The notes under the pieces are model-generated. The model ran no database searches and was not told the origin of the DNA. It saw only the letters and a program-made list of their open reading frames with translations. From positions 38,046 through 102,045 of IMG/VR virus record IMGVR_UViG_3300025280_000024: a stretch of DNA of 64,000 bases; one strand, written 5' to 3'. Below are positions 13,952-49,704 of this stretch, piece by piece. Each line of letters opens with the position of its first letter. Position 1 is the stretch's first letter. The position numbers and the translations under genes were made by a program. The stretch comes from a virus.

Positions 13952-14009
13952 GTTTTCTTTTCCTCCGTATTCTAATTAGTTATTACTTTAAAAAAAACTA
14001 TTAAACTTA

Positions 14010-25387: not shown

Positions 25388-25540
25388 TAGATATTATTCT
25401 CCTATAATAACATAATTAGTTCGTAATCAGTTATAAGCTATATCGATTGTCTAAAATTAGTTCCAAGTTGAAGATTGATGATTGGCAGAGTTCACAGAGG
25501 ATAGTGAATATCTGATTTGAATTATTGTTCATTCGTCATG

Positions 25541-27119: not shown

Positions 27120-27731
27120 TTATGTTAACACATGTAATATGCTATATAGCGCTCGATTAATTCGATCTGCTTTTGTCCACAATGTTTTTTGTCTGCTCTC
27201 CGAAAGATTCAAATATGCATTTGTCGTCGAGGGCTCAGACACAATATCAAAACAGATTAACTGAAAATCGTCTTCAACAATCGTTCCATCTTGACCTTCT
27301 GTGACAGAACCCAACCCTCGTGAAGAAATACCCAGTGAAACACCAGAATTGGCAAGCGATATCAGAATGTTACCAGATGGAGTGTTCAAACACTGAATCT
27401 TTCCCATGACGTTACTGCCATCCCACCACAATCTCTTCATCATGTGTGAGGCATTGCGAAGATTAACAACTGAATCTTCTGGATGATCTAATTCTCCCAG
27501 TGCTCTGTTCTCGTTTATGATCTTTTGATAGTTATTGACTTCTCGTTTTAGAATGTTTTCAGAATATATTCGGCCGTTGCCGTTCTTTTTGCCGGCACAC
27601 TGTACAATACCGGTAAGAAAGACAGTACCATCGTTATTAACCATTCGCTTTTCAGCTTCAGTTAAATAATCTTGGCAAATACCACCTTCGCATAATTCAT
27701 AATATTCTCTGAGTAATACTTTCTTGTTCAT
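27120..27731 (-). CDS. prohead protease (T4 gp21-like)
   Basis: NGNGRIY, ALGELDHP, SH, TPSG, GISSRGLGS, FDIVSEPST. Confidence 0.95.
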   Translation of the reverse strand: MNKKVLLREYYELCEGGICQDYLTEAEKRMVNNDGTVFLTGIVQCAGKKNGNGRIYSENILKREVNNYQKIINENRALGELDHPEDSVVNLRNASHMMKRLWWDGSNVMGKIQCLNTPSGNILISLANSGVSLGISSRGLGSVTEGQDGTIVEDDFQLICFDIVSEPSTTNAYLNLSESRQKTLWTKADRINRALYSILHVLT

Positions 27732-32978: not shown

Positions 32979-33524
32979 TTAGTCTTTCTTTCTTGTTACG
33001 TTTTTAGGTTTGGGAGACTTCTTGCCAAGTTCCAACCACTTCTTAAAAGACTTCTCCAGCCGTTCTTCACTTGCTTCAGCAACAGGCTCAACGTCTCCAA
33101 TTCCACCAATCTTATACCATTTATAAGCTTGAACCCAAGAACGAACCCTGGAAGTATTTTGAACAATAGCTTCCATTTCTCCTTCAGCAGTCAAAGTCAG
33201 GGCATCGCCGGTTACTTTCTTGTATTCTTTCTTAAGAAACTTTGCGATATCGTTAATCATGCTTTCTGTATCTGATTCGAAGTTCTTGTCGTGAACGTCT
33301 TTTAGCTTTACTTCAGAATGATAGTGGATACACAACAAATTTCCTGAAAACTTGACCTTAAAGCCATCCATCACACGAGAATCAAGAATTGAATCTCCTT
33401 CTTCTCTCTTCAAGCCAAAGGTATGTGCTTCGCCGTCATCCGTATAGCGAGCGTCGTGCCCTCCGTCATACGCATAAGTCAAAGCTTGCGATATTCCTCT
33501 GATAATCTCTAATGTTGTAGCCAT
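32979..33524 (-). CDS. hypothetical protein
   Basis: 181-aa ORF directly upstream of terL. Confidence 0.6.
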   Translation of the reverse strand: MATTLEIIRGISQALTYAYDGGHDARYTDDGEAHTFGLKREEGDSILDSRVMDGFKVKFSGNLLCIHYHSEVKLKDVHDKNFESDTESMINDIAKFLKKEYKKVTGDALTLTAEGEMEAIVQNTSRVRSWVQAYKWYKIGGIGDVEPVAEASEERLEKSFKKWLELGKKSPKPKNVTRKKD

Positions 33525-33525
33525 T

Positions 33526-33915
33526 TTATTCTCCTTGTGGTCTCCAGCCAGAACGCCAGCGTTCTTCCCGGTTTTCTACATACTGTATATAGCACTTAAA
33601 ACAACAATTATATTTATTCATATAAACATCATCCTGTGTTTTAAACGAATAAGTTTCACAAACCGGGCAAGTTCGTTCTTTTCCCTTAATAAGTAGTTTC
33701 TTGGGAATGAAAACTCCACTCACTTCTACTTTCTCGGATTTGTCTCTGATCTTGTCTCGCTTTTTATAAAACTCTTCAATTTGTTCTTGATATTCTTTTT
33801 CTTTTTCTTCATTCCAATCTTTTTTTGGATTTTGAATTGCCTCTTCGCCATACTTCTTTGCTATGGCTTTTTCGACTTTGACGATGTAGTGTGGATCTTT
33901 GTGTTCTTTAATCAT
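33526..33915 (-). CDS. hypothetical protein with Cys-rich (Zn-binding-like) C-terminus
   Basis: CPVC...CCFKC. Confidence 0.6.
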   Translation of the reverse strand: MIKEHKDPHYIVKVEKAIAKKYGEEAIQNPKKDWNEEKEKEYQEQIEEFYKKRDKIRDKSEKVEVSGVFIPKKLLIKGKERTCPVCETYSFKTQDDVYMNKYNCCFKCYIQYVENREERWRSGWRPQGE

Positions 33916-33919: not shown

Positions 33920-34780
33920 CTACCTTGGTTGAGAAACTAGTTGTACTGGACCTTCATAAAATTCATCAGGCGCGCCGAGAATTGTTCGTGTAAATCGACC
34001 AGATTCAACACTAATCCGTTCGCCAATTTCAGCAAGCTCGCGGAGGTCCGACCGCCCCATCTCTCCACTGTCTATCATCTCATTTATGGATTCATAGGCC
34101 CACCGAATTATGTCAGCGCCTTCTTCTGATGAGTTTTTCAAGTCAACAAGTTCGTCCATTCCTTGAGCGTGTTCCAACCACTCAACTGCTTGAGCGAACA
34201 TTCGCGACTCCCGGGAGCCTCCTATTTCAGATGGGAATTCATCTTGCGCAACAGACAAAAACCCTTTGATCGCATCAAGTCCAGTATCATTTAAAGTAGT
34301 TTCTTCACCGGTGTATCCCCCAGTGCTAATAGCAGCTTCTACTTCACCAGCCAAACCAGCCATTACTGCCGTCACTGCCAACATAACTAAAATAGTTGTG
34401 ATAATCTTACAAAGTGTTTTGTGGGCTGAACAAAACTTTGCAACCTTTTGCATGATGCTCTTTAACACTCCAGCAATCTTATCCAATTGAACGTTTGCCG
34501 TTAACATCATTTTTAAGGCTTGGAATACAAGTTTTTTGAAAAAAGATGCTACTTTCTCAACTGCTTTCGTAAATAACTCTTTTCCCTTCTCGTATCCTCC
34601 CCTGAGAATGTCCAATAAACCTTCATTTAAAACCTGAGAGGCTTCAAATATAACCATTTGTTCCCATTTATTATAGAGTTGTTCTTCCGTTATTAAACCT
34701 TGCTTGTGGTTTTCACAAAGAACTGTAAAGTTGTTTGCTTCCTTCAGAAACTTTCTCCAGTTTTCAAATAACAATTTCAT
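33920..34780 (-). CDS. MKL-leader protein 14; unknown, one hydrophobic segment
   Basis: Starts MKLLFENWRKFLKE. Confidence 0.7.
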   Translation of the reverse strand: MKLLFENWRKFLKEANNFTVLCENHKQGLITEEQLYNKWEQMVIFEASQVLNEGLLDILRGGYEKGKELFTKAVEKVASFFKKLVFQALKMMLTANVQLDKIAGVLKSIMQKVAKFCSAHKTLCKIITTILVMLAVTAVMAGLAGEVEAAISTGGYTGEETTLNDTGLDAIKGFLSVAQDEFPSEIGGSRESRMFAQAVEWLEHAQGMDELVDLKNSSEEGADIIRWAYESINEMIDSGEMGRSDLRELAEIGERISVESGRFTRTILGAPDEFYEGPVQLVSQPR

Positions 34781-35973
34781 TTTAAATACCCCACTATCTC
34801 ATCATAAGTATTTCCAAGCTCACCTCTGTGAATGGCAGACAAAACATCTTTTTCTGCCCGCCCTATCTCTTTGCCCTTAAAGCCCATTTGCATAAGTTCT
34901 TGTCCACCAATCTCCAACTCAGATCCTTTTAATGGGAGATCAATAGCGGACATTATTTTCTCTGCTTGCTGATAATAGCCAAGTTGTCTCAGAACGTTCG
35001 CAATCAATGGCATCTTTTCTTTCTGATCGACGGCATATTCATAGACCTCGCCGGCATCTCGTGAAGCTGCTATGGAAATGTCCAAGTACTTGATCATGGC
35101 GTTTGTTGGCCGCATAGAATTAAAATCACCGCCGTTTAGAAAGAAGGCAACAAAGTTTCCATTTATTTTGTCCTCGGGAGTTCCCTCGATCCTGACTATT
35201 TGTGGATCAAAATCATCACCAAACAACCTTCTTCCAATGCCAGTCTCCTCAAGAAGTGAAACAAGCTTGTCACTATTAACAGAACCCTTTGTCCAGGCCT
35301 TATTGAACTCCATAAAAACCCTTTCAGCAGCAACGGTGTCGATTTTATCGATATTGTTTCTAATCGCTGCGAGCGCAGCGGATTCAATGTCAAAGTCAAA
35401 ACGAACAGCAAACTGAAGCGCTCTCATCATTCTCAGCGGATCTTCTGAGAACCTTTCATTTGGATCACCAACGGCCCTAATGGTTTTGTTTTGTAAATCT
35501 TTTTGTCCTCCGAACACATCTATGATATTGCCGGCAGAATCTTTGGCAAGGGCGTTGATTGTAAAATCTCTTCTTCCTAAGTCGTCTTCTATTGTGGCGT
35601 TGGGATCTGTCGTGACATCGACATCTGTGTGCTTTTCTCCTGTCTTTTCTTCGCCAATTCTTGGAATAGCAAAGTCAAATTCTTCTCCATCAATTATAGC
35701 AGTAATAACACCAAAAGATTTGCCTACCAAGCTAACTTTTCCCAAAGGAGTCAGGGCAGTCGCAATCTGATCTAGTGGCAGCTTCCTTATCAAGAAGTCA
35801 ATATCTTTGGATGGAGGGGTATCCGGTAACAACTCGTCTCTCACAGCGCCGCCGACTATATAACTCTCTCCTCCGGCTTGTTCAATAGTAGATTGGATTT
35901 TCTCTATTGTAGCTGGATCAATCGCTTCGTGAAGTCTTGTGAACTTCCACCAATTTTCAAGTAGAAGCTTCAT
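34777..35973 (-). CDS. cca: MKL-leader protein 13; tRNA nucleotidyltransferase (class II CCA-adding family)
   Basis: VGGAVRD...DIDF, DLGRRDFTINA, RFSEDPLRMMR, ERV..E; no HD domain; starts MKLLLENWWKF. Confidence 0.9.
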   Translation of the reverse strand: MKLLLENWWKFTRLHEAIDPATIEKIQSTIEQAGGESYIVGGAVRDELLPDTPPSKDIDFLIRKLPLDQIATALTPLGKVSLVGKSFGVITAIIDGEEFDFAIPRIGEEKTGEKHTDVDVTTDPNATIEDDLGRRDFTINALAKDSAGNIIDVFGGQKDLQNKTIRAVGDPNERFSEDPLRMMRALQFAVRFDFDIESAALAAIRNNIDKIDTVAAERVFMEFNKAWTKGSVNSDKLVSLLEETGIGRRLFGDDFDPQIVRIEGTPEDKINGNFVAFFLNGGDFNSMRPTNAMIKYLDISIAASRDAGEVYEYAVDQKEKMPLIANVLRQLGYYQQAEKIMSAIDLPLKGSELEIGGQELMQMGFKGKEIGRAEKDVLSAIHRGELGNTYDEIVGYLK

Positions 35974-36416
35974 CTAAAAATCTCTTGCACTTTCCCACAC
36001 ACTTCAAAAGAACCAATTGGTTGAAAATCTTCTTCCACTAGTTCGTTTGACATTTGCGGTTCGCCGCCCGTTTCTGGGTTTGTCGCTATGGTAATGTGTG
36101 GTAGGCCTAATATTTTCATTGGCATTGGCAAGTCTCCCAAATCAACACGAGCGGTCACGACCATATCATTTTGAGCAAGGCCAACAACTTTCAAACAGCC
36201 GTTATAATCCAGCCAACGAGAAGGCAGACGACGCTTCATTTCTGCTGGTGGTAAAATTGTCATATGGTGTGCGAGAGTTTTCCATCCTTCTGGAACATAT
36301 TCTAAAAGTTTTGAATTATCATCTAGTACGAAAGCCGTGTATGAAACATCTTTGGTTGGTGTCCCAAGGGATATTTCATTCAAGAACTTTCTCCAGTTTT
36401 CAAATAGAAGTTTCAT
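35970..36416 (-). CDS. MKL-leader protein 12; 2H phosphoesterase (cyclic phosphodiesterase-like)
   Basis: Two HxT motifs: HHMTI and PHITIA...P..SN. Confidence 0.75.
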   Translation of the reverse strand: MKLLFENWRKFLNEISLGTPTKDVSYTAFVLDDNSKLLEYVPEGWKTLAHHMTILPPAEMKRRLPSRWLDYNGCLKVVGLAQNDMVVTARVDLGDLPMPMKILGLPHITIATNPETGGEPQMSNELVEEDFQPIGSFEVCGKVQEIFR

Positions 36417-37279
36417 TTATGTCTCTCCAAAACGGGAGTCGGGTTCTGCCTTTTCCATTGTCTCTTCAAATTAGCAAATATCCCGTTCTCTGTGTCGAGT
36501 GCTCTCTTGTATATTCTCTGTCTTAATTTGGGCGAAGTTCTTTCCCAACTGCCCGGGCCGTAAAAGTAGATGAACCATTCCATAAATTCTTCAGGGCTCA
36601 TTGCAACAAATTCGCCATCTTTATAAACAGCACTATCCTTAAACGATTTAATGGCTGCAATGACCCTTGCTTGTATTTCTTCAGTGGAGTCAATATATTC
36701 CTGAGTGTCTGGGTTGAATTGTTTTTGTCCTCCAGGGGCTCTATATGGTTTATGTCCCGACCTAATCGCATTCAAATAATGAGTAAGTTCGTGATCAAGA
36801 ATTTCTGAAACTTCAGAAATCGCTTGTTGAATCTGTGCATGTATCTGTTTCGTTGTGAACTCATCAAACTGTTGTTCTTTTAAGCCAATATGGGGAGCAC
36901 TTAACCGCATGCGGCCTCCGGTGCTCATGTCTGCGGCCGCATCGCCGCCTCGAAGATCCCAAACAACCATTACCTCGAATCTTGTTAATGCCTCCTTAAA
37001 TGTCTCAAAATCAGACATAATGGTCTCATCCTGCGTCATCGCTTGATATTCTTCGAACAATTCCTCATCCACAGATTCTGGTCTTGTTTTAAACAAGTAA
37101 GCGAACGTGCCTCCAGCATCTTCATCAGTCAGGTCCAGGGCCCACTTATAATCTTTAATATCATAAAAATTTGACAGTTCTCTAATGAACTTTAAGAAAA
37201 ATTCAGTAATGTTTTCATAAAGAACATCTGTTTTTCTCTCTTTCAAATACTTCCGCCAGTTTTCAAATAGGAGTTTCAT
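36413..37279 (-). CDS. MKL-leader protein 11; HEXXH zinc metallopeptidase-like
   Basis: ILDHELTHY...Y.....EIQA. Confidence 0.65.
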   Translation of the reverse strand: MKLLFENWRKYLKERKTDVLYENITEFFLKFIRELSNFYDIKDYKWALDLTDEDAGGTFAYLFKTRPESVDEELFEEYQAMTQDETIMSDFETFKEALTRFEVMVVWDLRGGDAAADMSTGGRMRLSAPHIGLKEQQFDEFTTKQIHAQIQQAISEVSEILDHELTHYLNAIRSGHKPYRAPGGQKQFNPDTQEYIDSTEEIQARVIAAIKSFKDSAVYKDGEFVAMSPEEFMEWFIYFYGPGSWERTSPKLRQRIYKRALDTENGIFANLKRQWKRQNPTPVLERHK

Positions 37280-38073
37280 CCAATCCTTATCCTAATGGCC
37301 GATGAACGAACCCCATCCAGAGACATCATTAAATCATAAGCATCGTTCTTTAGTTCAGAAAGTTTTGCCAGGTATCCATTTCTTCTTAGCACCTTGAACG
37401 CAAGATTCTCAGCCGAGAACTCACCTCCATCGGTCAGGCCGCATCTTCTCATGTTGCGAATCTTTTCCTTGATTTCGACTGCAGTTTCGTGAGCTTCTTG
37501 ATATTGGCCGGCAGCATACATTTTTTCAGCAGCATCAACCTTCTCCATCATCACTTCTGCTTTCCTGCTGATCGCTTCTTTGTCGAGTTGCACCTTTGTC
37601 TTGGATGGTTTGACCGTCCAATAACCATTCAACACTGAATACATTCCTGTTGAAGCATGTATCTCATTGGCATCTTGAACATAGATTTCAACTTCATGAC
37701 CTTTGATCATAATCTTGTGCATGCGATTCCAACTAGAAGACATATACCTAAAGAACCGATTAACCAAACCAACGTTGTCATCTACTTGAGCCAAATTAAT
37801 AATAATATGCAAATCTATATCTGAATATTTTGTCCAATTGTAGTTTGCTATTGAACCGGTTACTATTATATCAATAATATCAATATTTTTTAACTCTGTT
37901 TTTTCCCAAAAATCTAATGCTATTTCTTTTAACTTCTCTCTAATCTGCGAATTCAATTCGTCGTTCTGCCAAAGGTTTGGTTCAAGAGTGTCTTTTAGTT
38001 GAAGAGTCGAGAAATCAAAATCCTGCAATTCTGTTATATATTTCTTCCAATTTTCAAACAACAGCTTCATCAT
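37276..38073 (-). CDS. MKL-leader protein 10; Pol-beta-superfamily nucleotidyltransferase
   Basis: TGSIANYNWTKYSDIDLHI (GS...DxD) and VEIYVQ. Confidence 0.75.
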   Translation of the reverse strand: MMKLLFENWKKYITELQDFDFSTLQLKDTLEPNLWQNDELNSQIREKLKEIALDFWEKTELKNIDIIDIIVTGSIANYNWTKYSDIDLHIIINLAQVDDNVGLVNRFFRYMSSSWNRMHKIMIKGHEVEIYVQDANEIHASTGMYSVLNGYWTVKPSKTKVQLDKEAISRKAEVMMEKVDAAEKMYAAGQYQEAHETAVEIKEKIRNMRRCGLTDGGEFSAENLAFKVLRRNGYLAKLSELKNDAYDLMMSLDGVRSSAIRIRIG

Positions 38074-40583
38074 GATGTCCTTCTTTTCCTCAACATCTGT
38101 CGCAACTCCTGTTGTTCTGAAGAGGGCGGCGATGACAGCACTATATCGGCATATTTCTCAGCCAATTTTTCATCCTCTGCACTTACCGCCCATGAGTAAC
38201 CCTGTTCTAAATTGAATTTTATTGTTTTAAGCTTATCTCTGAGATCCCAAATATCATGAGATTCTTTTATATATTCGTCTACTTCCTCGAAGGATATTTG
38301 CCCTTTTTTACGAAGAACATCGTGCATACCCAAAATAAGCTTTTCCACTGCTGCGTTTTTTATTCCTAAGCCAGTTTTTGTTTGTTCTTGCATTTGTCTC
38401 TCGAAAAAGATCATTGGTTTTTCCACTTCGGCAATCACATAATGTGGATTTTGTCCCGGCGTCCAAGTTATGTGTTCTAATATAACAGATTTTGCCTTAG
38501 TGTTTATACCTTTATAAACAAAATACGACGGCCAAAGATCACGTTGATCAATTCTTGCATCATAACCCGATGGCGTTGGCCAATGTATTTCTCTTTCTGC
38601 TTCGGAAGTCAAATATTTATAAAGTTCAAATAAACGCTCGCGGCTGTCCATTACGTCGATGGCATCGTGCGTAACAGGAAGTGTAAGCAACGTCCCTCGT
38701 TTGAGAGCCTTAATTTCATCATAACTGGTTATTTTTTCATACTCAACATATTTTAGATTATTGATAAATCCAATCAATTTTTTTATATATTCATTTTTTT
38801 TGTATTCTGGATCCGTCGCGACTTTAATAATATGAGCATAATATAATGTAGCGTTTTTCATTATTTCATAATCCAAGTTATCGTGACCCGGATATCGAAA
38901 CTCGACATATCCCCTACTGTCAATATACTTGATATTAAATCCAAGATTCTTTCCGCCAGAATGCCTCGTTGAATATTCAACAACATCGGAAAGAGTTTTG
39001 TCAAGTATGTCAAAGTTCTTTTCAATAAAATTCCCTAATATTGATTCTCTATTGGGTCTGGAGGAGGGTTTATAACGAGCAACCTCTTTGCTTATCTGTG
39101 TTGTGATTGCTTCAATAACTGTCTGTTTGATGGGGCCGGCCCAACTACTTCCTTGGCGTGTCTCGAAGCCTTTTGTCGCAAAATCACGATTCAAAAACAA
39201 CAATGCTTTCATTAAGTTGTAATCTTTGTTTGATCTTCCTTCATCATCCAAATAACCAACGTTGGTGTGAAGGCCGGTTCTTCGATCCATATAAAAATTG
39301 TCTTGATTATCATAATCTTCAAAAAATAATTCCAAGAAATCCAAAGATTCTTGCAGGCCTTCGATATATGGTGGATTTGACATTGAAAACTCAACATGAG
39401 GATCTGGGCTCAACGTAGGATCCGGTGTATAATCCAATTGATGAGCATATTTGTTCATAAAATTTGGAAGATATCTTTGCATAAGCCCTATCATGCTGCT
39501 CTCGTCGAACTCTTCATCGCCATACTCGTCATAAATATGGCCATATTCCTCCTCATACCGATGTTCAATTTCAAAACCCATATCAGCTAGATAGCTGATG
39601 GGATCTCTGCGATATTCCTCCCACTGGCTTTGGGCTTCTTCTTCCATATATGTTTCGGCTTTGCGCTCAACCATGCTAGCAATCTCTTTTAAATGTTCGG
39701 AATCAGACTCTTTAAAATTGCTTGACAAATTCCAAGCATCGTTCATCACGCCCCACCTCGTGTCTAATTCCAAAATCTCTCCTTCAAGCAGTGAATCGAC
39801 ATCAAATAGCGCATCAGAGAACTCATCTCCCATTTCGATCCATCCGAAAAAGTCTTCCAAAGAAATCAGCATATCTTCGCGCTGTCGCCACAGTGGAAAT
39901 CCCGAAATATCAGATTTAAGATCAAAAACATATCTTCTAAACAGTTCAGCATTATCAATTCCTGATAATATATGAACAATCTTATCAGTTTCCTCTTCAG
40001 GATCCAAATCCAATCCAAGTTGAACTGCTTTCACTTCCGTAAATTCTGCCAGTTCTTCTTTAATCGCAGGGATGCTTAACAACAGCTCAATAAAAGCATT
40101 TGCTTCTGGAGAACCATCTCTTGAAATACTCTCAATCGCCGTATCATATAACTTCCGGCCGTCATCTGAATTCCTAACAGAGATTTCAAATTTTACAATC
40201 TGGTTACTTGCTGCTTCATCGGGCGGATATCCCATATTCGGAGCAATCTCGTCGGCAATATATCGATCAACCAAACCATCACCAGTGGCATCATACTCGT
40301 CAAGAAGAGAGTCCTCCACAAAACTTTCGAAATCTCTTTGTCCTGCGTCTTCAGAAAAATGATCAAAACTTATATAATTGCTAGCATATTCTTCCAAACT
40401 CGGACGTTCAGATTCGGCGCCGCCGAGCACTGCTGATTTATTAGAAAGAAGCTCAATCTCATATGAAATGGTAAACCGATCACTATCAGCCATCAGAACT
40501 TCTTTGTCTGCTTGTTTGAACTCTTGTATTAGTTCTTTTTCTTCTGCGATATACTTTCGCCAATTTTCAAATAATAGCTTCAT
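38070..40583 (-). CDS. MKL-leader protein 9; putative amidoligase (COOH-NH2 ligase-like) with a large acidic insertion
   Basis: TISYEIEL ... PDPTL...VEF ... TGLHTNVG ... YVEFRYPG. Confidence 0.6.
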   Translation of the reverse strand: MKLLFENWRKYIAEEKELIQEFKQADKEVLMADSDRFTISYEIELLSNKSAVLGGAESERPSLEEYASNYISFDHFSEDAGQRDFESFVEDSLLDEYDATGDGLVDRYIADEIAPNMGYPPDEAASNQIVKFEISVRNSDDGRKLYDTAIESISRDGSPEANAFIELLLSIPAIKEELAEFTEVKAVQLGLDLDPEEETDKIVHILSGIDNAELFRRYVFDLKSDISGFPLWRQREDMLISLEDFFGWIEMGDEFSDALFDVDSLLEGEILELDTRWGVMNDAWNLSSNFKESDSEHLKEIASMVERKAETYMEEEAQSQWEEYRRDPISYLADMGFEIEHRYEEEYGHIYDEYGDEEFDESSMIGLMQRYLPNFMNKYAHQLDYTPDPTLSPDPHVEFSMSNPPYIEGLQESLDFLELFFEDYDNQDNFYMDRRTGLHTNVGYLDDEGRSNKDYNLMKALLFLNRDFATKGFETRQGSSWAGPIKQTVIEAITTQISKEVARYKPSSRPNRESILGNFIEKNFDILDKTLSDVVEYSTRHSGGKNLGFNIKYIDSRGYVEFRYPGHDNLDYEIMKNATLYYAHIIKVATDPEYKKNEYIKKLIGFINNLKYVEYEKITSYDEIKALKRGTLLTLPVTHDAIDVMDSRERLFELYKYLTSEAEREIHWPTPSGYDARIDQRDLWPSYFVYKGINTKAKSVILEHITWTPGQNPHYVIAEVEKPMIFFERQMQEQTKTGLGIKNAAVEKLILGMHDVLRKKGQISFEEVDEYIKESHDIWDLRDKLKTIKFNLEQGYSWAVSAEDEKLAEKYADIVLSSPPSSEQQELRQMLRKRRTS

Positions 40584-42820
40584 TGCCTTCTTCCCAAAAG
40601 TATTTTTATTCCTTTTTTTCTCTTCTTGTTTTCATCGAGGCCTAGGGCTCGGGCGCGCTCGGGGAGTTCTTCTTTTTTTGATTCAAGTGTTTTCACAACT
40701 GCCTTGTTAAGTAGTTCGTCTATTGCCTCTTTGACTGCCTCAGAAAGAATATCATAGTTCTCATCAAAGTACTCAACAAACTCTGCTATGACTGCCGACT
40801 GAGTTTCATCCAATTCACCAGTTACTTCAACACTCATCTGAGTTTTGATTTTCTTTTCTTTGAGCGAAGCAGAGGTCATGTATGGATTAAATGTGAATGC
40901 TGTTGCTGGAAGCATCCTTTTTATTTCTGGTGCTTCAATACCTGGAATTTGCAGCTGTTTCTCTGCTTCGGCATAGGCTCGGACCATAAGAGCGTCCAAT
41001 TTATCATAAAGAAGGTCGTCCGCCCTACTGATGAGTTTAATCTTGAAGAAGTATACGATCTTTCTCTGTATATCCTTGTAATGCTCCATAACACGATCGA
41101 TCCAATCCGGGTTCCACTCGCCGGTGTCTTCAGTACCAGACTTCGCAAGATGCTCTAACCCCATCAACTCTATTATTTCTTTAGCTGCCTCATCGAAAAT
41201 AGTAATATTTTCATAAACAAATTGTACAGAAATTTCTACGCGTCTTCCTTCGGCGCTAACCACGAAATGCTTAAACTCTTTCTCTGCGAGTTTTGCTTTA
41301 AGTTGTCCAATAGGTTCGTCTGATATATCTAAAGCCCCTTCTTCAATGAATAACTTGATTAAATCTTCGCGAATATTATCATATTCCGAATCAATTTTAG
41401 ACATGGAATCCACAAAATTTCGAAAACCTTCGATACCCACTGACTCGTACTCGTCTGGATTTATGTCTATTCTCACTTCGTTTTGATAAACCTCCAAGTA
41501 ATCCGGATAAATGTAATAAGCATCCAGCAGCGATCTCATTTCATCTTCTAAATCAAAATCCTCTAAATCCTCAGGTTGGAACTTGGGGCCAAAATCTAAA
41601 TCTCCAAAGTCAAACCCAAAACCACCACTCCAGTATTCATTCTCATCATAATCGCGGTGAATATAGACGTGTTGTAATCCAGCCTCATCCTCAATCCTTT
41701 GGTACTCTTCTTCCGATGGGCCGGCAGGATTCATCTCAAAGTGGTGTTGTGCTTCAGTATCAATAGTGTTCCATATGTCTAATACTTCGTTATCCCAAAC
41801 TTCTTCCAGATCGTCGTCGGGTTCTAATCCAAGTTTATCGAGTGTGGCCAATATCTCTGCCTGCTGTTCTGGATATTCTTCGCGAAAATCATCTTCCAAG
41901 TGTGGTGTCTGAACGTCTCGGTCTTTTTCATACCTTTGAATATACTCAGTATAATTAATAGCAAGTTTATAGGCGTCAACAAAGTCTTCTCCAAGAAGGT
42001 TCATTGCAATAATCTCTGTGACCTCCTCGTTGTCCATTGAATTATCTGCAGCATCATAAGCTTCCTCAAATTCACCATGATCACCATAAACCAAAGCTAA
42101 CTTATGATATTGGCGATAAGAACTGGTCCAAAAATTCTTTTTGTTCTTCATAAAAAGGAAATAGAATCCTTTGCCTTCGGCGGTAATACTGTTGAAATAG
42201 TTCTCTGACTGTGTCGCTGAAATACACCACTTTGTTCCCATGCCCCAATAGCAGGATGCGCCGGTAGTAAGTGGGCGAACCAACAAGAAATTGTCGTCTT
42301 TCATTATTATTTCGGAGTTTTGTATTGCTTCTTGTTTTTGTTGTTCTTTTTTCGCCTTCTCTTCATCTTTTTCCTTTTTTCGGCTTTCGCCATAACGAAC
42401 AACAGCGTTCAAAGTATCTAAATTTGGTACTTTTTGGAGATCTTTGAACTCAGCATTGGCACCTTCGAGGTATTTGCTATACAAATGATACTTCTCAATT
42501 TGATTCGCGACTTTCATCGCGATACCTTCCGAACTAAATTCATTATCTTGTTGTGTCATTATCGGCAGGTTTTCCAACTTGCCAACATCTTTCGCACCTC
42601 CGCTGCGTCTCTCGCTGATTTCTTTGTCCAGGATAAGTGCAGCCGGTATAAGATACTTTTGATTTCCAGAAGGATCCTTTTCAATGAGAATATCAAGCAG
42701 GCCTTTCTTGGTTAACCAGGGATACTTCTTCTTTGCGTCTTGTATTCTGCCTTCTATAAGCAGTTGTTCTTCGTTGAGAAGGTTTATGTATTTTCGCCAG
42801 TTTTCAAATAGGAGTTTCAT
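40580..42820 (-). CDS. MKL-leader protein 8; large acidic protein
   Basis: GASCYWGMGTKWCISA domain related to that in 44638..45894 and 46470..47855. Confidence 0.65.
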   Translation of the reverse strand: MKLLFENWRKYINLLNEEQLLIEGRIQDAKKKYPWLTKKGLLDILIEKDPSGNQKYLIPAALILDKEISERRSGGAKDVGKLENLPIMTQQDNEFSSEGIAMKVANQIEKYHLYSKYLEGANAEFKDLQKVPNLDTLNAVVRYGESRKKEKDEEKAKKEQQKQEAIQNSEIIMKDDNFLLVRPLTTGASCYWGMGTKWCISATQSENYFNSITAEGKGFYFLFMKNKKNFWTSSYRQYHKLALVYGDHGEFEEAYDAADNSMDNEEVTEIIAMNLLGEDFVDAYKLAINYTEYIQRYEKDRDVQTPHLEDDFREEYPEQQAEILATLDKLGLEPDDDLEEVWDNEVLDIWNTIDTEAQHHFEMNPAGPSEEEYQRIEDEAGLQHVYIHRDYDENEYWSGGFGFDFGDLDFGPKFQPEDLEDFDLEDEMRSLLDAYYIYPDYLEVYQNEVRIDINPDEYESVGIEGFRNFVDSMSKIDSEYDNIREDLIKLFIEEGALDISDEPIGQLKAKLAEKEFKHFVVSAEGRRVEISVQFVYENITIFDEAAKEIIELMGLEHLAKSGTEDTGEWNPDWIDRVMEHYKDIQRKIVYFFKIKLISRADDLLYDKLDALMVRAYAEAEKQLQIPGIEAPEIKRMLPATAFTFNPYMTSASLKEKKIKTQMSVEVTGELDETQSAVIAEFVEYFDENYDILSEAVKEAIDELLNKAVVKTLESKKEELPERARALGLDENKKRKKGIKILLGRRQ

Positions 42821-42821
42821 C

Positions 42822-43163
42822 TTATTTCCTCACCAATTTAGGATTCAACACAACAATCGAAGGCTCTTCTCCGTTGGGTTCTATAACTTTAACAATATCA
42901 TATCCTTTAAACATTTCCTGTGGTTGCCAAATTTCTTGAAACTCTTGCCACCAAAAAACTTTGGGATAAACGCTTGCTTCAGACAAATCAATTTCAACTT
43001 CAGATACTTGCCCATCTTTATGTTGTGCTGCATATTTTTCAGCGTATACTCTGTCTTTTGAATAGAATGTTCCAATACGAGTAGATAAAAAGTCTTTTCC
43101 GCCTCCGTGATAATATGTTTCTTCTTTCAAGAACTCTCGCCAATTTTCAAATAGGAGTTTCAT
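42822..43163 (-). CDS. MKL-leader protein 7; ADP-ribosyltransferase-fold-like
   Basis: YYHGG...FYS....A..YA...GYD......E...VVLNP pattern of small phage ART-like domains. Confidence 0.5.
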   Translation of the reverse strand: MKLLFENWREFLKEETYYHGGGKDFLSTRIGTFYSKDRVYAEKYAAQHKDGQVSEVEIDLSEASVYPKVFWWQEFQEIWQPQEMFKGYDIVKVIEPNGEEPSIVVLNPKLVRK

Positions 43164-43831
43164 ATATTTTCCTCTTTGGGCGAATTGTCGTCCGGACCTG
43201 TTAGTTTCGTAATGAAATCAAGTAAGGCATTATCAATGTCATCTGATAAATTATTATCCATCATATCAAACATCATTTGACTAGCCTGTATATATGTTAT
43301 GTCTGATGCTCTATAAAGATTCCAAAGTTTACTATCAAAATCCTCTCTATTTTGGAAGTTTTTAATTAAATCACCAACGCCTGTTTCAAATATTTCCCAA
43401 GCGCCAGGAATAGATTGAAGACTAGCTGGTCGTGGATGGCCTGATCCGACAGCGTCGGACGCTTCGGCCACCGGGTGTCCTTTTTGAGAAGAAATCATAA
43501 TCACAGGCACATCCAGATTACACTTGAGAGCCGCCGTCAATCTGTGCCTACCTTCAACGGTATAATCTGCGTCAAGATCAATTATGATTGGTTTTTTTAT
43601 CTCGCCATCAGCACAAATCTGGTCAATCTGTTCTTGATCGGTCGGTTCACCTTCTCGTCTTACTTTGTCTTTAAGCCAAAATTTTATATCTTCTTTGTTA
43701 GAAGCCAGTATTGTGTCTCGCTCCAATTTAACATCTTCTATGTTTCTACCGAGTTCGTTCAAGTAAGCGCGAACTTCGTCCATTGCATTCTCTCTTAGAA
43801 ATTTTCGCCAGCTTTCAAACAACAACTTCAT
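43160..43831 (-). CDS. MKL-leader protein 6; ParB/sulfiredoxin-like domain (start at 43831)
   Basis: MKLLFESWRKFLRE; KPIII...VEGRHRLTAA...VPV. Confidence 0.6.
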   Translation of the reverse strand: MKLLFESWRKFLRENAMDEVRAYLNELGRNIEDVKLERDTILASNKEDIKFWLKDKVRREGEPTDQEQIDQICADGEIKKPIIIDLDADYTVEGRHRLTAALKCNLDVPVIMISSQKGHPVAEASDAVGSGHPRPASLQSIPGAWEIFETGVGDLIKNFQNREDFDSKLWNLYRASDITYIQASQMMFDMMDNNLSDDIDNALLDFITKLTGPDDNSPKEENI

Positions 43832-43832
43832 A

Positions 43833-44552
43833 TTATCTGTCCCAGTCAATCTCTGCGTGAGGAAAGCGAGACTGCATATAGTAGCGCCAATATTCTCTAA
43901 TCTTACTCATTATCGGACCCAGTTCCTCTTCGGTGTATCCATAATGTAATCCCGTACTATAAATATTCATCAACTCTTGATCTAATACTTCGCCGGCGGG
44001 TTCCTTAAACATCTTTGCTTTCTTATAAATACCAACGACATGAGCTTTTGTTTCTGATTCGTTGGTAAAATATGCTTCTGCGCTTTCAAGAGTGTTCCAA
44101 ACATCTCCCGTAGGAATCTTTTTTTGAATCTTCATCAACATTTCAGTGGGTTGCGTGCTGTGTTCCAGTTCGTGTCTCAATGATTCTTTAATCTCTGGAA
44201 TCAATTCGGAAAATATTGAGTTTTCATAACCTATCGGCAAGATAACATCCACAACAATTTCTGAATTTTTTCTTTGTTCTTCTGTTGCGTCCAAGTCAAA
44301 CTCGTATTTTGCATGAGCATAAACTAGATCTCCTTCCAACATATTAACATAGACATCTTTGACATATTCTAAATTATCCAAAATATGTTCAATATCTAAT
44401 TTAAAATAAGCTTGTTTGGCTTGATTGAAAGCATCTTTGACATCTGAATCTTTCAAAGCGTTTACTATTTCTCTGGAGATTAGGGTCGTATATTGTTCTA
44501 GTTCTCGGCCTTCTTTCAAATATCGTCGCCAACTTTCAAACAGCAGCTTCAT
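43833..44552 (-). CDS. MKL-leader protein 5; HEXXH metallopeptidase-like (start at 44552)
   Basis: MKLLFESWRRYLKE; LRHELEH...YF....E..AH. Confidence 0.6.
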   Translation of the reverse strand: MKLLFESWRRYLKEGRELEQYTTLISREIVNALKDSDVKDAFNQAKQAYFKLDIEHILDNLEYVKDVYVNMLEGDLVYAHAKYEFDLDATEEQRKNSEIVVDVILPIGYENSIFSELIPEIKESLRHELEHSTQPTEMLMKIQKKIPTGDVWNTLESAEAYFTNESETKAHVVGIYKKAKMFKEPAGEVLDQELMNIYSTGLHYGYTEEELGPIMSKIREYWRYYMQSRFPHAEIDWDR

Positions 44553-44637
44553 ATTCTTTCCTCGATCGATACGGTTTTCCGTTGAGAAACCACTGTTGTG
44601 ATCCCTTCGGCTGCATCGTAGGTGGTTTTGTTGTGTT

Positions 44638-45894
44638 TCATTGTTGCTGCAGTTTCCCGTTGAGATACCACTGTTTTTTTCCATTGGCACGTATCACAGC
44701 AGGACCATCTTCACGATGTCGTTTCCCGTTGAGCCACCACTGTTTTGTTCCATCGGGCCCTATCTCAGCAGGCCCATCCTCGCGATGTAGTTCCCCGTTG
44801 AGATACCAGAACTTTGATCCATCAGTATATATCACAGCAGGCCCATCCTCGCGATGTAGTTCCCCGTTGAGATACCAACCTTTTGTTCCATCAGCATGTA
44901 TCAAAGCAGGACCATCTTCGCGATGCCGTTCTCCGTTGAGATACCACCATTTTGATCCATTAGCATGTATCAAAGCAGGTCCATCCTCGCGATGTAGTTC
45001 CCCGTTGAGCCACCACACTTTTTGGGCACTAGTGGACACATACACTCTTCCATCATCATATTCTCTATAATCGTACTGTTCAACTTTTTTCAAAATAGGT
45101 TTGGGCAGGTGCTTATTTCCTCTGAGTCTTGAAACCAGTTTGGCTAATAGTTCACCGTCGATGGCGAGGTCGTCTACGTTCATGTATTGTCTTGAACCAA
45201 AGTGTATCTGAACATCTTCTGAAGAATCTGTTTTGTGTTTGAAGATAATCAGTGGATCTTCTGCAGAGTGGTATTGTTCATAGAAATCTAAACCAGGAGC
45301 AGCAGTACACCATTGTGTTCCTTTTCCAAGCTCGCAAGCAGCACCTTTGTTGGTTGGAATATAGACAACGTATTCTTCATCTTCATGAATCTTGTGTTTT
45401 CCCTGTCCAGCATCTAAATACCGTTTTTTTGCAAGGTGTTTTCCGTAGGGTTCTCTAGCATCGTCGACAATTGATTGAAGTTGATCGATTGAATCAATCT
45501 TTGCCAGTTGTTTAACAGAAAGAAGCCTGTCTAAGTTTTGTTTCTTTATTTGAAAGAAGGTTTCAAGAGCAGCGCGATCATCGGGCGTCAACACTATAAG
45601 GATTTGATAATCGCGAATAAACAACGAAACGAGCCAATTAAGTGCTTCTGCTTTGTCTTTTTCATCAATATCTCTAGGGATAAAAGCTAATAGAGTAACG
45701 GCGGCGGATCCAACTGTTTCTTTTGAGGCGATATCGAAGAGGCGCTCATCTTCAATAACTTGGTTATAGTTTTCCACTGCTCTCTTGAATTTCTTTGATT
45801 CGAAGCGTTTTTTAACATCTTCCATTCGAACTTCTTGAATAAGTTCTGATTGTTCATTCAAGAACTTTCGCCAGTTTTCAAATATCAGCTTCAT
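44638..45894 (-). CDS. MKL-leader protein 4; WC-motif domain plus 23-aa MORN-like repeats (C-terminus disrupted)
   Basis: Paralog of 46470..47855; 5 full WxLNG.xHREDGPA repeats. Confidence 0.75.
   Translation of the reverse strand: MKLIFENWRKFLNEQSELIQEVRMEDVKKRFESKKFKRAVENYNQVIEDERLFDIASKETVGSAAVTLLAFIPRDIDEKDKAEALNWLVSLFIRDYQILIVLTPDDRAALETFFQIKKQNLDRLLSVKQLAKIDSIDQLQSIVDDAREPYGKHLAKKRYLDAGQGKHKIHEDEEYVVYIPTNKGAACELGKGTQWCTAAPGLDFYEQYHSAEDPLIIFKHKTDSSEDVQIHFGSRQYMNVDDLAIDGELLAKLVSRLRGNKHLPKPILKKVEQYDYREYDDGRVYVSTSAQKVWWLNGELHREDGPALIHANGSKWWYLNGERHREDGPALIHADGTKGWYLNGELHREDGPAVIYTDGSKFWYLNGELHREDGPAEIGPDGTKQWWLNGKRHREDGPAVIRANGKKQWYLNGKLQQQ
44650..45030. repeat. 69-bp tandem coding repeats
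   Basis: Recurring ...cccgttgagatacca...gcagg(a/t/c)ccatc..c(a/g)cgatg... units. Confidence 0.9.
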
Positions 45895-46486
45895 TTAATA
45901 TATTCTCCAATTCTTGAATGGTCTTAGCCGTGTCTGTATGCAATATAGCAATTCCTCCTGCTTCAGTCCATGGAACTGTATTCTTTGAGAAATCGTCAAT
46001 TAAAATGTTTGGTTTCCCATTTGTGACTGCCCAACGATATTTGTCGTGTGACATATAAATTTTCTCAGGTGGAGGAGGGTTTAAATTATTATCTATCCAT
46101 TCTTGTTTGCCAATCTCTGACCCATAACCCATTGGAGCAGTCAAAACGTATGGATTGTATGGTGCAATATGATTCCACAACTGTTTGCCATCGGGCATCC
46201 ACTCTAAATCTCTCCAAAAGTTTGCATGATGTTGTAATTCTTTGTACATAAACCTTTTGACAACTTTGTTACCACCAATGTCTTCACCATCAACATAGTC
46301 ACGATCGATTTCTGCTTTTAACTCTTCGGCTTCGCCACTTTGTAGTTTATTGGTTATATAATTTACGGCACCCCCAATAAAATCAACAAGCACACCGTCC
46401 ATATCACAATAAATTTGATATGTCTGAGTTCGTTCAGAGGGCACATAGTTCAGATATTTGCGCCAATTTTCAAATAGCAGCTTCAT
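45878..46486 (-). CDS. MKL-leader protein 3; HAD-family 5'(3')-deoxyribonucleotidase-like (start at 46486)
   Basis: IYCDMDGVLVDF, VLTAP, K..W, ILIDD...N...W...GG..ILH. Confidence 0.85.
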   Translation of the reverse strand: MKLLFENWRKYLNYVPSERTQTYQIYCDMDGVLVDFIGGAVNYITNKLQSGEAEELKAEIDRDYVDGEDIGGNKVVKRFMYKELQHHANFWRDLEWMPDGKQLWNHIAPYNPYVLTAPMGYGSEIGKQEWIDNNLNPPPPEKIYMSHDKYRWAVTNGKPNILIDDFSKNTVPWTEAGGIAILHTDTAKTIQELENILNEADI

Positions 46487-47855
46487 ATTCTTTCCTCGAT
46501 AGACGTTTCCCGTTGAGATACCACACTTTTGATCCATCAGCACCTATCAAAGCAGGTCCATCTTCACGATGCAGTTTCCCGTTGAGATACCACACTTTTG
46601 ATCCATCAGCATATATCACAGCAGGTCCATCTTCACGATGCTGTTTCCCGTTGAGAAACCACTCTTTTGTTCCATTAGTATATATCACAGCAGGTCCATC
46701 TTCACGATGTCGTTTCCCGTTGAGATACCAGCGTTTTGATCCATTGGCAACTATCACAGCAGGTCCATCTTCGCGATGTCGTTCCCCGTTGAGCCACCAC
46801 TCTTTTGTTCCATCAGCACCTATCAAAGCAGGTCCATCTTCACGATGCAGTTTCCCGTTGAGATACCAGTGTTTTGTTCCATTGGCACGTATCACAGCAG
46901 GTCCATTTTCACGATGTCGTTTCCCGTTGAGATACCACGATTTTGTTCCATTAGCATATATCACAGCAGGTCCATCTTCACGATGCAGTTTCCCGTTGAG
47001 ATACCACTGTTTTTTTCCATCAATGGACAAGTATACTCTTCCATCATCATATTCTCTATAATCGTACTGTTCAACTTTTTTCAAAATAGGTTTGGGCAGG
47101 TGCTTATTTCCTCTGAGTCTTGAAACCAGTTTGGCTAATAGTTCACCGTCGATGGCGTAGTCGTCTACGTTCATGTATTGCTCAGAACCAAAGTGTATTT
47201 GAACGTCTTTTGAAGAATCTGTTTTGTGTTTGAAGATGATCAGTGGATCTTCTGCAGAGTGGTATTGTTTATAGTAATCTAAACCAGGAGCAGCAGTACA
47301 CCATTGTGTTCCTTTTCCAAGCTCGCAAGCAGCGCCTTTGTTGGTTGGGATGTAGACAACGTATTCACTATCTTCGTGAATCTTGTGTTTCCCTTGTCCA
47401 GCATCTAAATATCGTTTTTTTGCAAGGTGTTTTCTGTAGGGTTCCCTAGCATCATCGACAATTGATTGAAGTTGATCGATTGAATCAATCTTTGCCAGTT
47501 GCTTAACAGAAAGAAACCTGTCTAAGTTTTGTTTCTTTATCTGAAAGAAGGTTTCAAGGGCAGCGCGATGGAGGGGAGCGAATATTTCCGCAGAGATGGA
47601 TAGGGATCCACGAATAAACAGTGAAATGATCCAGTTAAGTGCTTCTGCTTTGTCTTTTTCATCAATGTCCTCGGGGACGCAACTTAATAAAGTGTCAATG
47701 ATGAATTCAATTGAGAAATCAGTGTTTTGTTCCGCTGCTGCTCTCTTGAATTTCTTTGATTCGAAGCGTTTTTTAACATCTTCCATTTGAACTTCATGAA
47801 TAAGCTCTGTCTGTTCATTCAAGAACTTTCGCCAGTTTTCAAATATCAGCTTCAT
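46470..47855 (-). CDS. MKL-leader protein 2; WC-motif domain plus 7 MORN-like 23-aa repeats
   Basis: GAACELGKGTQWCTAA; WYLNGKLHREDGPA repeats. Confidence 0.8.
   Translation of the reverse strand: MKLIFENWRKFLNEQTELIHEVQMEDVKKRFESKKFKRAAAEQNTDFSIEFIIDTLLSCVPEDIDEKDKAEALNWIISLFIRGSLSISAEIFAPLHRAALETFFQIKKQNLDRFLSVKQLAKIDSIDQLQSIVDDAREPYRKHLAKKRYLDAGQGKHKIHEDSEYVVYIPTNKGAACELGKGTQWCTAAPGLDYYKQYHSAEDPLIIFKHKTDSSKDVQIHFGSEQYMNVDDYAIDGELLAKLVSRLRGNKHLPKPILKKVEQYDYREYDDGRVYLSIDGKKQWYLNGKLHREDGPAVIYANGTKSWYLNGKRHRENGPAVIRANGTKHWYLNGKLHREDGPALIGADGTKEWWLNGERHREDGPAVIVANGSKRWYLNGKRHREDGPAVIYTNGTKEWFLNGKQHREDGPAVIYADGSKVWYLNGKLHREDGPALIGADGSKVWYLNGKRLSRKEYEAAI
46500..47030. repeat. 69-bp tandem coding repeats
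   Basis: Seven and a half units of the same repeat as 44650-45030. Confidence 0.9.
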
Positions 47856-48384
47856 ATGAACCTTCCTTTTCTGCTAATAGAACGACATCTTGTATGCTGG
47901 AAGAATCCCAAATACACCCCGAAGCCACGTCCCAACCATAATACCAATCCGACTTCATTCTTCGGTTCCAGTTATAGGGGCATATTTCTATTCCTCCATA
48001 ACCTTCCTTTTGTACCAGTTCCCAATCAATCAATCGACCAAACGGTGATTGAATACCGAACCCGGCTTCAAGTTCCTCGAAACCAGCATCATCTGATATT
48101 TTAAGAATCTTACCATCTGTTTTAACCTCGTATAGATAACTTGACTCTTCAAGCCAATTCGGCATTTCGCTGCGAACCCACTTGACCCAAGCATCGCCGC
48201 AGCCATACCATAGCCCTTGTGGTTTCATCATAGGGTGTGGGGGCTTTTTCTGTTGAACGTTGCGAAACTCTGTATAAGGTGTCTTAGAAATGAATACTTT
48301 TTGTTCCGGAGTAATGTGATGCCCCCAGAGTTCTGACTGCTCCTTTATCAAGAACTTTCGCCAGTTTTCAAATATCAGCTTCAT
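47839..48384 (-). CDS. MKL-leader protein 1; Trp-rich hypothetical
   Basis: MKLIFENWRKFLIKE; KPQGLWY...WDVASGCIWD; first gene of the array. Confidence 0.7.
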   Translation of the reverse strand: MKLIFENWRKFLIKEQSELWGHHITPEQKVFISKTPYTEFRNVQQKKPPHPMMKPQGLWYGCGDAWVKWVRSEMPNWLEESSYLYEVKTDGKILKISDDAGFEELEAGFGIQSPFGRLIDWELVQKEGYGGIEICPYNWNRRMKSDWYYGWDVASGCIWDSSSIQDVVLLAEKEGSYEADI

Positions 48385-48404: not shown

Positions 48405-48414
48405 TATAAATAGT
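48405..48414 (-). promoter_or_regulatory. putative late promoter motif ACTATTTATA heading the MKL array
   Basis: The same motif precedes the sheath, tube, neck, scaffold and bS21 genes. Confidence 0.65.
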
Positions 48415-48436: not shown

Positions 48437-48862
48437 TTAAAAAGAAAGAAGGGACTTTTTGATTACGGCTAGTTCATCTGGTTGAAGTGTTGTGTCCCAT
48501 TCTCCTATCCTATCTATATCGACCCAGGTAAAACCTGTGTGTTCATGACTCAGTTTAACCTGTTCGCCAGAAAACTTATCTGTGGTATAAAAATATACCA
48601 TTCCATAGCTGTGATTGGTTTTTTGTATCAGTGGTGTTAAATCATCTGGATCTACTTTCAATCCGGTTTCTTCGAAAGTTTCTCTAGCAGCTGCTTGTTC
48701 TGGAGTTTCGCCTTTCTCAACGTGGCCACCAGGAGGACCCCACGTTTCTGGCTTCCAGCTGGATTCCCTGCTTCTCAATAGAATAAGAATCTTGCCATCT
48801 TTGACAAGAATGACGTTTGCACCTTTTTTAATTTCTGACATATCGATCCTTATTTTGATCAT
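48437..48862 (-). CDS. NUDIX hydrolase
   Basis: PGGHVEKGETPEQAAARETFEETGL Nudix box. Confidence 0.93.
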   Translation of the reverse strand: MIKIRIDMSEIKKGANVILVKDGKILILLRSRESSWKPETWGPPGGHVEKGETPEQAAARETFEETGLKVDPDDLTPLIQKTNHSYGMVYFYTTDKFSGEQVKLSHEHTGFTWVDIDRIGEWDTTLQPDELAVIKKSLLSF

Positions 48863-49305: not shown

Positions 49306-49704
49306 TTATTGACCTAGTTCTTGCTGCAGCAGTTCTTGTGAATATAAATTGGTCAATCGTCCCTCTGCTTTTTTAAGCTCCAATCTTTGAAAAATTCCTT
49401 GCAATTTCTTAATACTATCAGGAAATCTCAGGTTAAAATCAACTTCAAATTCTTCAAGTGCTTGATCAAAATCACCAGAATTAAAATTATCTGCAGATAG
49501 TAGTTTGATAATTTTATCAAAATATGCTAATTCCAGTCGTCTTCGCCAGGCTGATGGTGCTGTTCCTGCAGCCTTAATTGCATCCACTAGTTTTTGTCGT
49601 GATCGAGAGCGCGTGTCATAGTTCACCTCGGTCAGATCCGGATCAAATATTTTCTCAAGTTCTTCTTTGATAATCTGTTTTAGTTGTGTTTTTGTGATCT
49701 TCAT
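49306..49704 (-). CDS. MKITK-leader family protein
   Basis: Starts MKITKTQLKQIIKEEL. Confidence 0.7.
   Translation of the reverse strand: MKITKTQLKQIIKEELEKIFDPDLTEVNYDTRSRSRQKLVDAIKAAGTAPSAWRRRLELAYFDKIIKLLSADNFNSGDFDQALEEFEVDFNLRFPDSIKKLQGIFQRLELKKAEGRLTNLYSQELLQQELGQ

Follow-up and report, generated by a model that had tools for sequence, protein, structure and literature searches.

A short leader peptide shared by fourteen consecutive genes of an uncultured marine T4-like phage: a probable capsid-targeting tag whose DNA also bounds cassette turnover

In a stretch of viral DNA of 64,000 nucleotides (IMG/VR record IMGVR_UViG_3300025280_000024, positions 38,046 to 102,045; here called the window), 14 consecutive genes on the minus strand between positions 33920 and 48384 open with one and the same short leader, MKL[LI]FENWRK[FY]LxE. 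By analogy with bacteriophage T4 this leader is most likely in the main a peptide signal, a capsid-targeting sequence (CTS) and protease propeptide of the T4 type. Its DNA at the same time supplies off-frame stop codons that end upstream genes, and it bounds the gain, loss and exchange of whole cassettes between relatives and in marine populations. The account as a whole, a capsid tag whose DNA doubles as a seam for coupling and cassette turnover, we consider rather probable. An earlier note on this DNA had described the leader DNA as a plug-in junction that terminates and couples any upstream cassette, a framing that is incomplete and in part over-read, as it is above all the peptide that is conserved in the leader. 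To judge by its sequence the source is an uncultured marine 'Far-T4' myovirus, a placement made because the closest cultured relatives of its capsid protein (Flavobacterium phage immuto, Microcystis phage Mel-JY01 and Rhodothermus phage RM378) are only 42-48% identical.

The array is sharply delimited. A DNA pattern search with up to 3 mismatches returned 13 leader copies against 0.06 expected, and a six-frame peptide search returned 14, all contiguous and on the minus strand, with no further copy outside the array in the 102-kb contig. The same family was recovered independently by a repeat search. Note that the whole gene set of the window is on the minus strand. The leader ATGs lie at 48384, 47855, 46486, 45894, 44552, 43831 and 43163, followed by 42820, 40583, 38070, 37279, 36416, 35973 and 34780, and the genes are numbered here as cassettes 1 to 14 in this order. 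Over 42 nt the 14 leaders show a mean nucleotide identity of 75%, as compared to 30% in their flanks. The run of repeats that the earlier note had placed at 34777-48384 is thus real, but the fourteenth cassette (33920-34780) lies just outside that range, and a non-overlapping gap of 85 nt on the minus strand at 44553-44637, 3' of the truncated MORN paralogue in cassette 4, had gone unlisted.

A peptide function is indicated by the distribution and the form of the leader. In a survey of 75 loci of marine viral contigs, where it heads same-strand arrays of 2-8 genes, it precedes 218 proteins of 106 cargo families, of which 67 are singletons. Residues are replaced conservatively (F/L/M/I at residue 5, Y/F/H at residue 11, L/I/V/M at residue 12), and conservation drops abruptly past residue 14. 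The motif [LIVM]xE occupies residues 12-14 in 163 of 202 leader copies and lies no further than residue 19 in 95% of them; among the window leaders 10 of 14 carry it at residues 12-14, and all 14 have L-x-E at residues 4-6. The consensus cut site of the T4 protease gp21 is (L/I)-x-E, and a Peptidase_S77 gene for a prohead protease of the gp21 type is present in the window at 27120..27731 on the minus strand, where matches to the profiles PF03420, PF07230 and PF07068 mark the gp21-type protease and head genes of the gp20 and gp23 type. Besides the window, all five of the large leader-bearing contigs examined encode an S77 protease. An AlphaFold2 model of cassette 3, an NT5C-type enzyme, predicts a low-confidence helix for leader residues 3-12, disorder for residues 13-24 and the HAD fold from residue 25 onward, and cultured-phage homologues of the CCA enzyme in cassette 13 align only from residue ~6-36 onward.

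In the mechanism that we propose, the tag M-K-L-L-[F/L/M]-E-N-W-R-[K/Q]-[Y/F]-[L/I/V]-x-E, placed on 14 unrelated proteins, would carry its cargo into the prohead's scaffolding core. The gp21-type S77 protease would then clip the tag after the terminal [LIVM]-x-E, and the cargo, among it nucleotidyltransferases and a 5'-nucleotidase, would ride in the head and pass into the host together with the DNA. The T4 CTS is a propeptide of 10-19 residues that directs proteins to the scaffolding core and that gp21 cuts off (PMC9026906, PMC5694885, PMC12373910), and related proteases cut after a hydrophobic-x-Glu motif (PMC5694885). The T-even internal-protein (ip) loci comprise more than 30 internal-protein variants that have only the CTS in common (PMC9026906, PMC12373910, PMC3012670); the primary work on the CTS and the ip loci is that of Mullaney & Black 1996 and Repoila et al. 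1994, as summarised in PMC9026906, PMC3012670, PMC12373910 and PMC2839356. The array resembles these systems in several ways: a short N-terminal leader is the sole common part of proteins that are unrelated in all else; this leader has the gp21 motif (L/I)-x-E at its end, and there are head genes of the gp20, gp21 and gp23 type; and the locus is hyperplastic, its content varying between close relatives, with border repeats implicated in the shuffling. There are differences as well. The array holds 14 cassettes in one operon as compared to 1-3 in T4, its cargo includes large enzymes of up to 837 residues, and packaging and cleavage are here proposed from sequence.

Several points weigh against a capsid tag of the T4 type. 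The leader MKLLFENWRKFLxE cannot be aligned to the T4 CTS, which we take to be MKTYQEFIAE; it has 14 residues instead of 10, and by eye only the initial M-K and the terminal hydrophobic-x-E correspond, so that the leader would be an analogue of the T4 sequence at most. A long distance separates the arrays from the head genes in other phages. Searches of cultured phages found none with the leader: a tblastn search of a cultured-phage collection with the 21-residue leader region gave no copy, although so short a query is weak and absence is not proven by it, a megablast search with the array gave no match to cultured phages, and Flavobacterium phage immuto, the nearest cultured relative by capsid, holds no leader copies. 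A word-based protein search with the leader region returned only four close homologues, all of one cargo, and a full-text literature search found no relevant paper on the leader peptide.

Alternatively, the cassettes might be paralogues that arose by tandem duplication, with the leader as the best-conserved remnant of the ancestral gene. Two MORN cassettes are indeed true duplicates, and the cassette of 746 residues has a domain in common with them. The other cargos, however, belong to unrelated folds and families (PolyA_pol, NTP_transf_2, NT5C and orphans), the cargo families number 106 overall, and the cultured-phage CCA homologues described above align only from residue ~6-36 onward and come from a collection that returned no copy of the leader. 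We consider common descent of the cassettes highly improbable as the origin of the leader.

A second leader of 14 residues, MK[IL]TKTQLKQIIKEE, with I-x-E at residues 12-14, is found on six otherwise different small proteins, encoded on the minus strand at 55174-55500, 51310-51612, 50698-51297, 50443-50694, 49306-49704 and 26667-27107. One of these genes adjoins that of the prohead protease, and we count this second leader in favour of the capsid tag. Unlike the first leader, the second has no consistent stop in the +2 frame.

At the level of DNA, the first leader carries TGA at positions 2-4 and at positions 15-17 in all 14 window copies, including the CTT-GAA copy at 35973, just as the earlier note had it, and the 12 junctions it described were all found. 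Seven are ATGA overlaps of 4 nt, at 34777, 35970, 36413, 37276, 40580, 43160 and 38070, the last of which holds on condition that the first ATG of ATGATG is the start codon. In three overlaps of 17 nt (45878, 46470 and 47839, with the upstream C-termini ..NEADI, ..YEAAI and ..YEADI, respectively) the tail E-A-D/A-I of the upstream protein is encoded by the +2 frame of the leader, with TGA 15-17 as its stop. Two junctions are gaps of 1 nt, at 42821 and 43832. Mechanistically, ATG-AAR yields the ATGA stop-start overlap and (T/C)TT-GAA the second off-frame TGA, so that an upstream gene in either alternative frame ends within 17 nt of the next start and can be coupled to it in translation; the genes of the array do appear to be translationally coupled. 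The residues K, R, G and E also abound at the C-termini of the cargo (final 15 nt of every cassette, 33920-48384; for example ..GRRQ, ..KRRTS and ..RGKN), because these last codons double as the purine-rich ribosome-binding site of the next cassette.

Off-frame leader stops do end upstream genes beyond the window, although not as universally as first claimed. Of 175 junctions, 42% rely on the ATGA stop-start and 18 (10%) on TGA 15-17 to end the upstream gene, the remaining upstream genes having stops of their own. Furthermore, the TGA at 2-4 arises automatically from a Met-Lys start. The synonymous sites were tallied in 174 unique leader copies (202 after addition of the window and of loci with flanks of the large terminase gene, TerL) and with controls from the same contigs. 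For Phe at codon 5, TTT is used in 130 of 132 leaders, as compared to 80% before Glu in gene bodies; for Leu at the same codon it is CTT in 41 of 43 (control 29%), and codon 6 is GAA in 98% (control 64-77%). Arg at codon 9 is CGN in ~90%, as compared to 47% after Trp in gene bodies and 30% at gene starts, Leu at codon 3 is CTC in 44% (control 5-9%), and A is preferred as the third base of codon 4. In contrast, the synonymous sites of codons 7 and 10-14 are near neutral expectation. The earlier expectation that leader synonymous sites would be conserved beyond protein constraint is thus borne out at T15, A18, the CGN of codon 9 and others, but not at these saturated codons. Selection on the leader nucleotides is site-specific and not a blanket homogenisation.

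The extra constraint at leader positions 4-18 and 25-27 is real, and none of the controls tested accounts for it. Codon usage and gene-start bias were ruled out as the source of the codon bias by the same-contig controls, as were dipeptide bias of F-E, L-E or W-R and avoidance of TTCGAA or GGAG. T15 completes the off-frame TGA, in agreement with the earlier note, but a role as upstream stop is not the whole reason, because A18 is equally conserved where the TGA is lost: GAA is retained in 18 of 19 Met5 variants without TGA 15-17. This retention, together with the concentration of the constraint in codons 2-6 and 9, beside the start, would also suit a function of the initiation region in the RNA, be it as an unstructured A/U-rich start or as the operator of a translational regulator that controls the cassettes jointly. 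The second codon is AAA in 89% of copies, and the third positions of codons 4-6 are A or T. Such a function does not, however, account for the preferred CTC at codon 3 and CGN at codon 9, which are neither A/U-rich nor favoured at other gene starts, nor for Leu5, where TTA, although richer in A/U, never appears as often as the usage of that codon would predict. For junction RNA, RNAalifold found no consensus structure, and the minimum free energy was not below that of shuffled sequences (-8.3 as compared to -8.7). A RegA-type repressor was not found in the incomplete contig, but this is uninformative, as the positive control was silent too. On balance we judge an RNA-level function to be an unlikely explanation.

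Evidence for the DNA of the leader as a boundary comes from relatives. Loci whose TerL is 66-87% identical keep one and the same frame, namely SbcCD, an Rz-like gene, NUDIX, the array, two small genes, TerL and portal, but the number of cassettes within it varies from 0 (L098) through 1 (L082, L086), 2 (L043, L085) and 3 (L087) to 4 (L084), and their cargo is largely different. The earlier prediction that presence/absence and mosaic breakpoints would map to the leader holds in these comparisons, array content being variable between conserved flanks. The 3.2-kb marine contig L159 matches window positions 42829-39701 at 98.1% identity, and identity falls to ~77% exactly at the leader of the cassette of 746 residues. 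Upstream of that leader L159 has the end of a homologue of the cassette of 239 residues and lacks the two cassettes of 223 and 113 residues (1011 nt) that lie between them in the window. The same joint, 42822->43840, is also found in contigs of two sequencing runs that hold the window form too. L025 and L065, with flanks 92-98% identical, differ by the insertion or deletion of one cassette of 115 residues, and their flanking matches have 28 nt of leader sequence in common, as is characteristic of an indel between direct repeats. L035 and L056 alternate between shared and different segments (shared-different-shared-different), and all four boundaries are at leaders. Over all loci, 17 of 37 non-redundant internal end-points of homology fall within -5..+55 nt of a leader ATG, where 4.5-9% are expected (p about 4e-9), and the mosaic boundaries lie inside the leaders, at +28 to +50. 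Cassette turnover between relatives and in marine populations is thus bounded by the leader, which does not establish that the leader is designed for turnover. Note that most joints in run contigs, with short sides of 24-34 nt at leaders, were treated as other leader-bearing phages and not as recombinants.

In one further contig, of run X8 (4.9 kb, from another marine sample), ~509 nt stand in place of the 55-nt window junction 38025-38079. This junction holds the leader of cassette 10, and the extra length is the size of a small additional cassette. Some cassettes have zero depth in run X8, which was not counted as absence.

The leader is the only sequence common to neighbouring cassettes (~42 nt each, with almost no intergenic DNA), and recombination between leaders deletes, inserts and swaps whole cassettes seamlessly, as the indels and mosaics with leaders at their borders show. 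We infer that short-homology recombination by the phage's own machinery is the mechanism. The RecA that the earlier note had named as the agent is encoded, as a RecA/UvsX-type recombinase at 2..997 (minus strand, running off the window start), and may carry out the shuffling. Also in agreement with that note, which had called the array integrase-free, the 102-kb contig, estimated to be 56% complete, has no integrase or resolvase match (PF00589 or PF00239).

Certain observations weigh against a recombinogenic leader. The longest exact match between window leaders has a median of 10 nt and reaches 37-44 nt only in the MORN-related trio, homogenisation is weak (synonymous identity 0.63 within contigs as compared to 0.58 between them), and the run contig X4 joins 33914->34789, which amounts to the loss of cassette 14, with no leader on the 3' side. 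In addition, breakpoints at gene boundaries could in part reflect selection for intact genes after illegitimate recombination. All this would suit an explanation in which the leader is a protein tag only, whose homology plays no mechanistic part in cassette turnover, and in which stops, overlaps and breakpoints are by-products of codons in an AT-rich genome and of selection for intact genes; the automatic TGA at 2-4, the use of TTT-GAR for 80% of F-E dipeptides in gene bodies and the saturated codons would equally be expected. What it does not accommodate is the direct-repeat signature of the L025/L065 indel with its 28-nt overlap, the position of the mosaic boundaries within leaders and not merely close to gene ends, and the biased codons Leu5 and Glu6. 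We thus hold the pure by-product to be somewhat unlikely.

Retaining the preferred account, of a capsid tag whose DNA doubles as a seam, we note how much of the proposed recombination handle stands. Breakpoints do fall at leaders, but with identity of ~10 nt and weak homogenisation the handle is one of micro- or homeologous homology. Recombination in T4 is said, after Singer et al. in 1982, to be inefficient below about 50 bp of homology. Because the shared homology is short and homogenisation weak, exchange between leaders should be infrequent, and its traces should show on an evolutionary time scale only. One candidate cause of the nucleotide constraint is an identity core for recombination, because the crossover tract of the L025/L065 indel is GAAAACTGGCGCAA. 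The further-reaching proposal that the leader nucleotides are under selection as a self-contained seam, with stops in both frames and the identity core YTTGAAAAYTGGCG, for an integron-like but integrase-free exchange, by way of a translated repeat, of effector genes for capsid delivery among marine T4-like phages, appears doubtful to us.

Related arrangements are known. Repeats have been described at the borders of the hyperplastic ip loci (Repoila et al. 1994, as described in PMC2839356 and PMC4122927), and the elements termed PeSLs and PmSLs are associated with indels and swaps by homologous recombination in T4-like phages (Arbiol et al. 2010, PMC2839356; Comeau et al. 2014, PMC4122927). As in the array, PeSLs are short conserved repeats at gene borders of hyperplastic regions, found where close relatives differ by indels, replacements or mosaics, and they have been proposed to work by homologous recombination that needs no integrase of its own. 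A PeSL, however, is an intergenic composite of stem-loop terminator, early promoter, Shine-Dalgarno sequence and start codon, and the T-even repeats likewise are promoter/stem-loop elements (PMC2839356). In the array neither promoters nor terminators are enriched, there is no stem-loop and next to no intergenic DNA, and its repeat is the coding leader itself and encodes a peptide. With integrons the array shares a one-directional row of unrelated cassettes that lack promoters of their own and follow one putative promoter, and one repeat per junction; it differs in that no tyrosine or serine recombinase was found in the contig and in that the junction repeat is translated. A repeat search found no attC-like imperfect inverted repeats at the cassette ends, only distant and weak inverted pairs. 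In the orphan toxin cassettes of contact-dependent inhibition (CDI) and Rhs polymorphic toxin loci new cargo would enter by recombination at a conserved coding motif that precedes the variable cargo, but the conserved part there belongs to one large delivery protein, whereas every cassette here is a separate gene with its own start. New in the present case are the leader sequence, the length of the array, the enzymatic cargo and a translated repeat as seam; the kind is known from the ip loci and PeSLs.

If the leader is indeed a capsid-loading tag, the repertoire of injected proteins of a large group of uncultured marine T4-like phages could be read from sequence; over 100 cargo families can be seen already, and many of these are enzymes of nucleotide or RNA metabolism. 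How this repertoire turns over in natural populations is seen from the indels bounded by leaders, similar to the PeSL and ip shuffling in T4 but with a coding repeat, and the synonymous constraint offers a testable handle on whether features of evolvability are themselves selected.

As for transcription, the motif ACTAWTTA occurs in 18 copies in the window, as compared to 5.2 expected, and is over-represented upstream of virion genes. All but one of the copies (17 of 18) lie on the coding strand and precede the start codons of virion or other genes by 13-47 nt, examples being 48407-48414, 25413-25420, 24096-24103 and 13973-13980. There is no copy inside the array, but one, ACTATTTA, lies at 48407..48414 on the minus strand, 23 nt before the first leader ATG. 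The motif is a candidate phage promoter, and this copy the putative promoter of the whole array unit; we count its position before the array in favour of the capsid tag. Sigma-70-like promoters are not enriched in the array (48 sites, 39 expected) and not located at leaders, nor are terminators (13 terminator-like sites, 11 expected).

All cassettes are on the minus strand. Cassette 1 (47839..48384, 181 residues, phrog_8582, function unknown) has its last residues, ..YEADI, from the next leader. Its own leader has 37 nt of identity to those of the MORN cassettes 2 and 4, with which it also shares the next residues (EQSEL/EQTEL), the remainder being unrelated, and its N-terminus looks chimeric or recombinant by sequence. 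Cassette 2 (46470..47855, 461 residues, ending in ..YEAAI) has MORN-like repeats with a 69-nt period, and cassette 4 (44638..45894, 418 residues) is its paralogue; leader and first 76 nt are 96% identical in both, and the segmental duplication extends into the start of the following leader. Between them lies cassette 3 (45878..46486, 202 residues, ending in ..NEADI), the NT5C/HAD 5'-nucleotidase. Cassette 5 (43833..44552, 239 residues) contains HELEH, and its homologue in L159 is immediately upstream of the cassette of 746 residues. Cassettes 6 (43160..43831, 223 residues, no family) and 7 (42822..43163, 113 residues, an orphan) are those missing in the variant of L159, X4 and X5. Cassette 8 (40580..42820, 746 residues) is 98% identical to L159 in nucleotides and has homologues with 46-50% amino acid identity in L084 and L085; its domain of ~100 residues (phrog_17056/28193), common to cassettes 2, 4 and 8, is present too in Salicola phage SCTP-2 and in Pseudomonas jumbo phages. 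At the position of cassette 9 (38070..40583, 837 residues, no family) L084 has a different cassette of 209 residues. Cassette 10 (37276..38070, 264 residues), a nucleotidyltransferase (NTP_transf_2), is the one most widely found among relatives. Cassette 11 (36413..37279, 288 residues) contains HELTH and belongs to no family, and cassette 12 (35970..36416, 148 residues) has two H-x-T motifs and by eye resembles 2H-phosphoesterases, a label that no profile confirmed. Cassette 13 (34777..35973, 398 residues) is a nucleotidyltransferase of the CCA-adding/poly(A) polymerase type, and cassette 14 (33920..34780, 286 residues) has a hydrophobic segment.

The flanking genes are likewise on the minus strand. 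The NUDIX gene (48437..48862) is the conserved 5' flank of the array, and the 3' flank (32979..33915) consists of the two small conserved genes at 33526-33915 and 32979-33524, directly downstream of which follows the large terminase (31392..32966). After the terminase come a portal of the T4 gp20 type, the S77 prohead protease and the gp23-type major capsid protein (21202..23019), which has [LI]xE sites within its N-terminal 60 residues.

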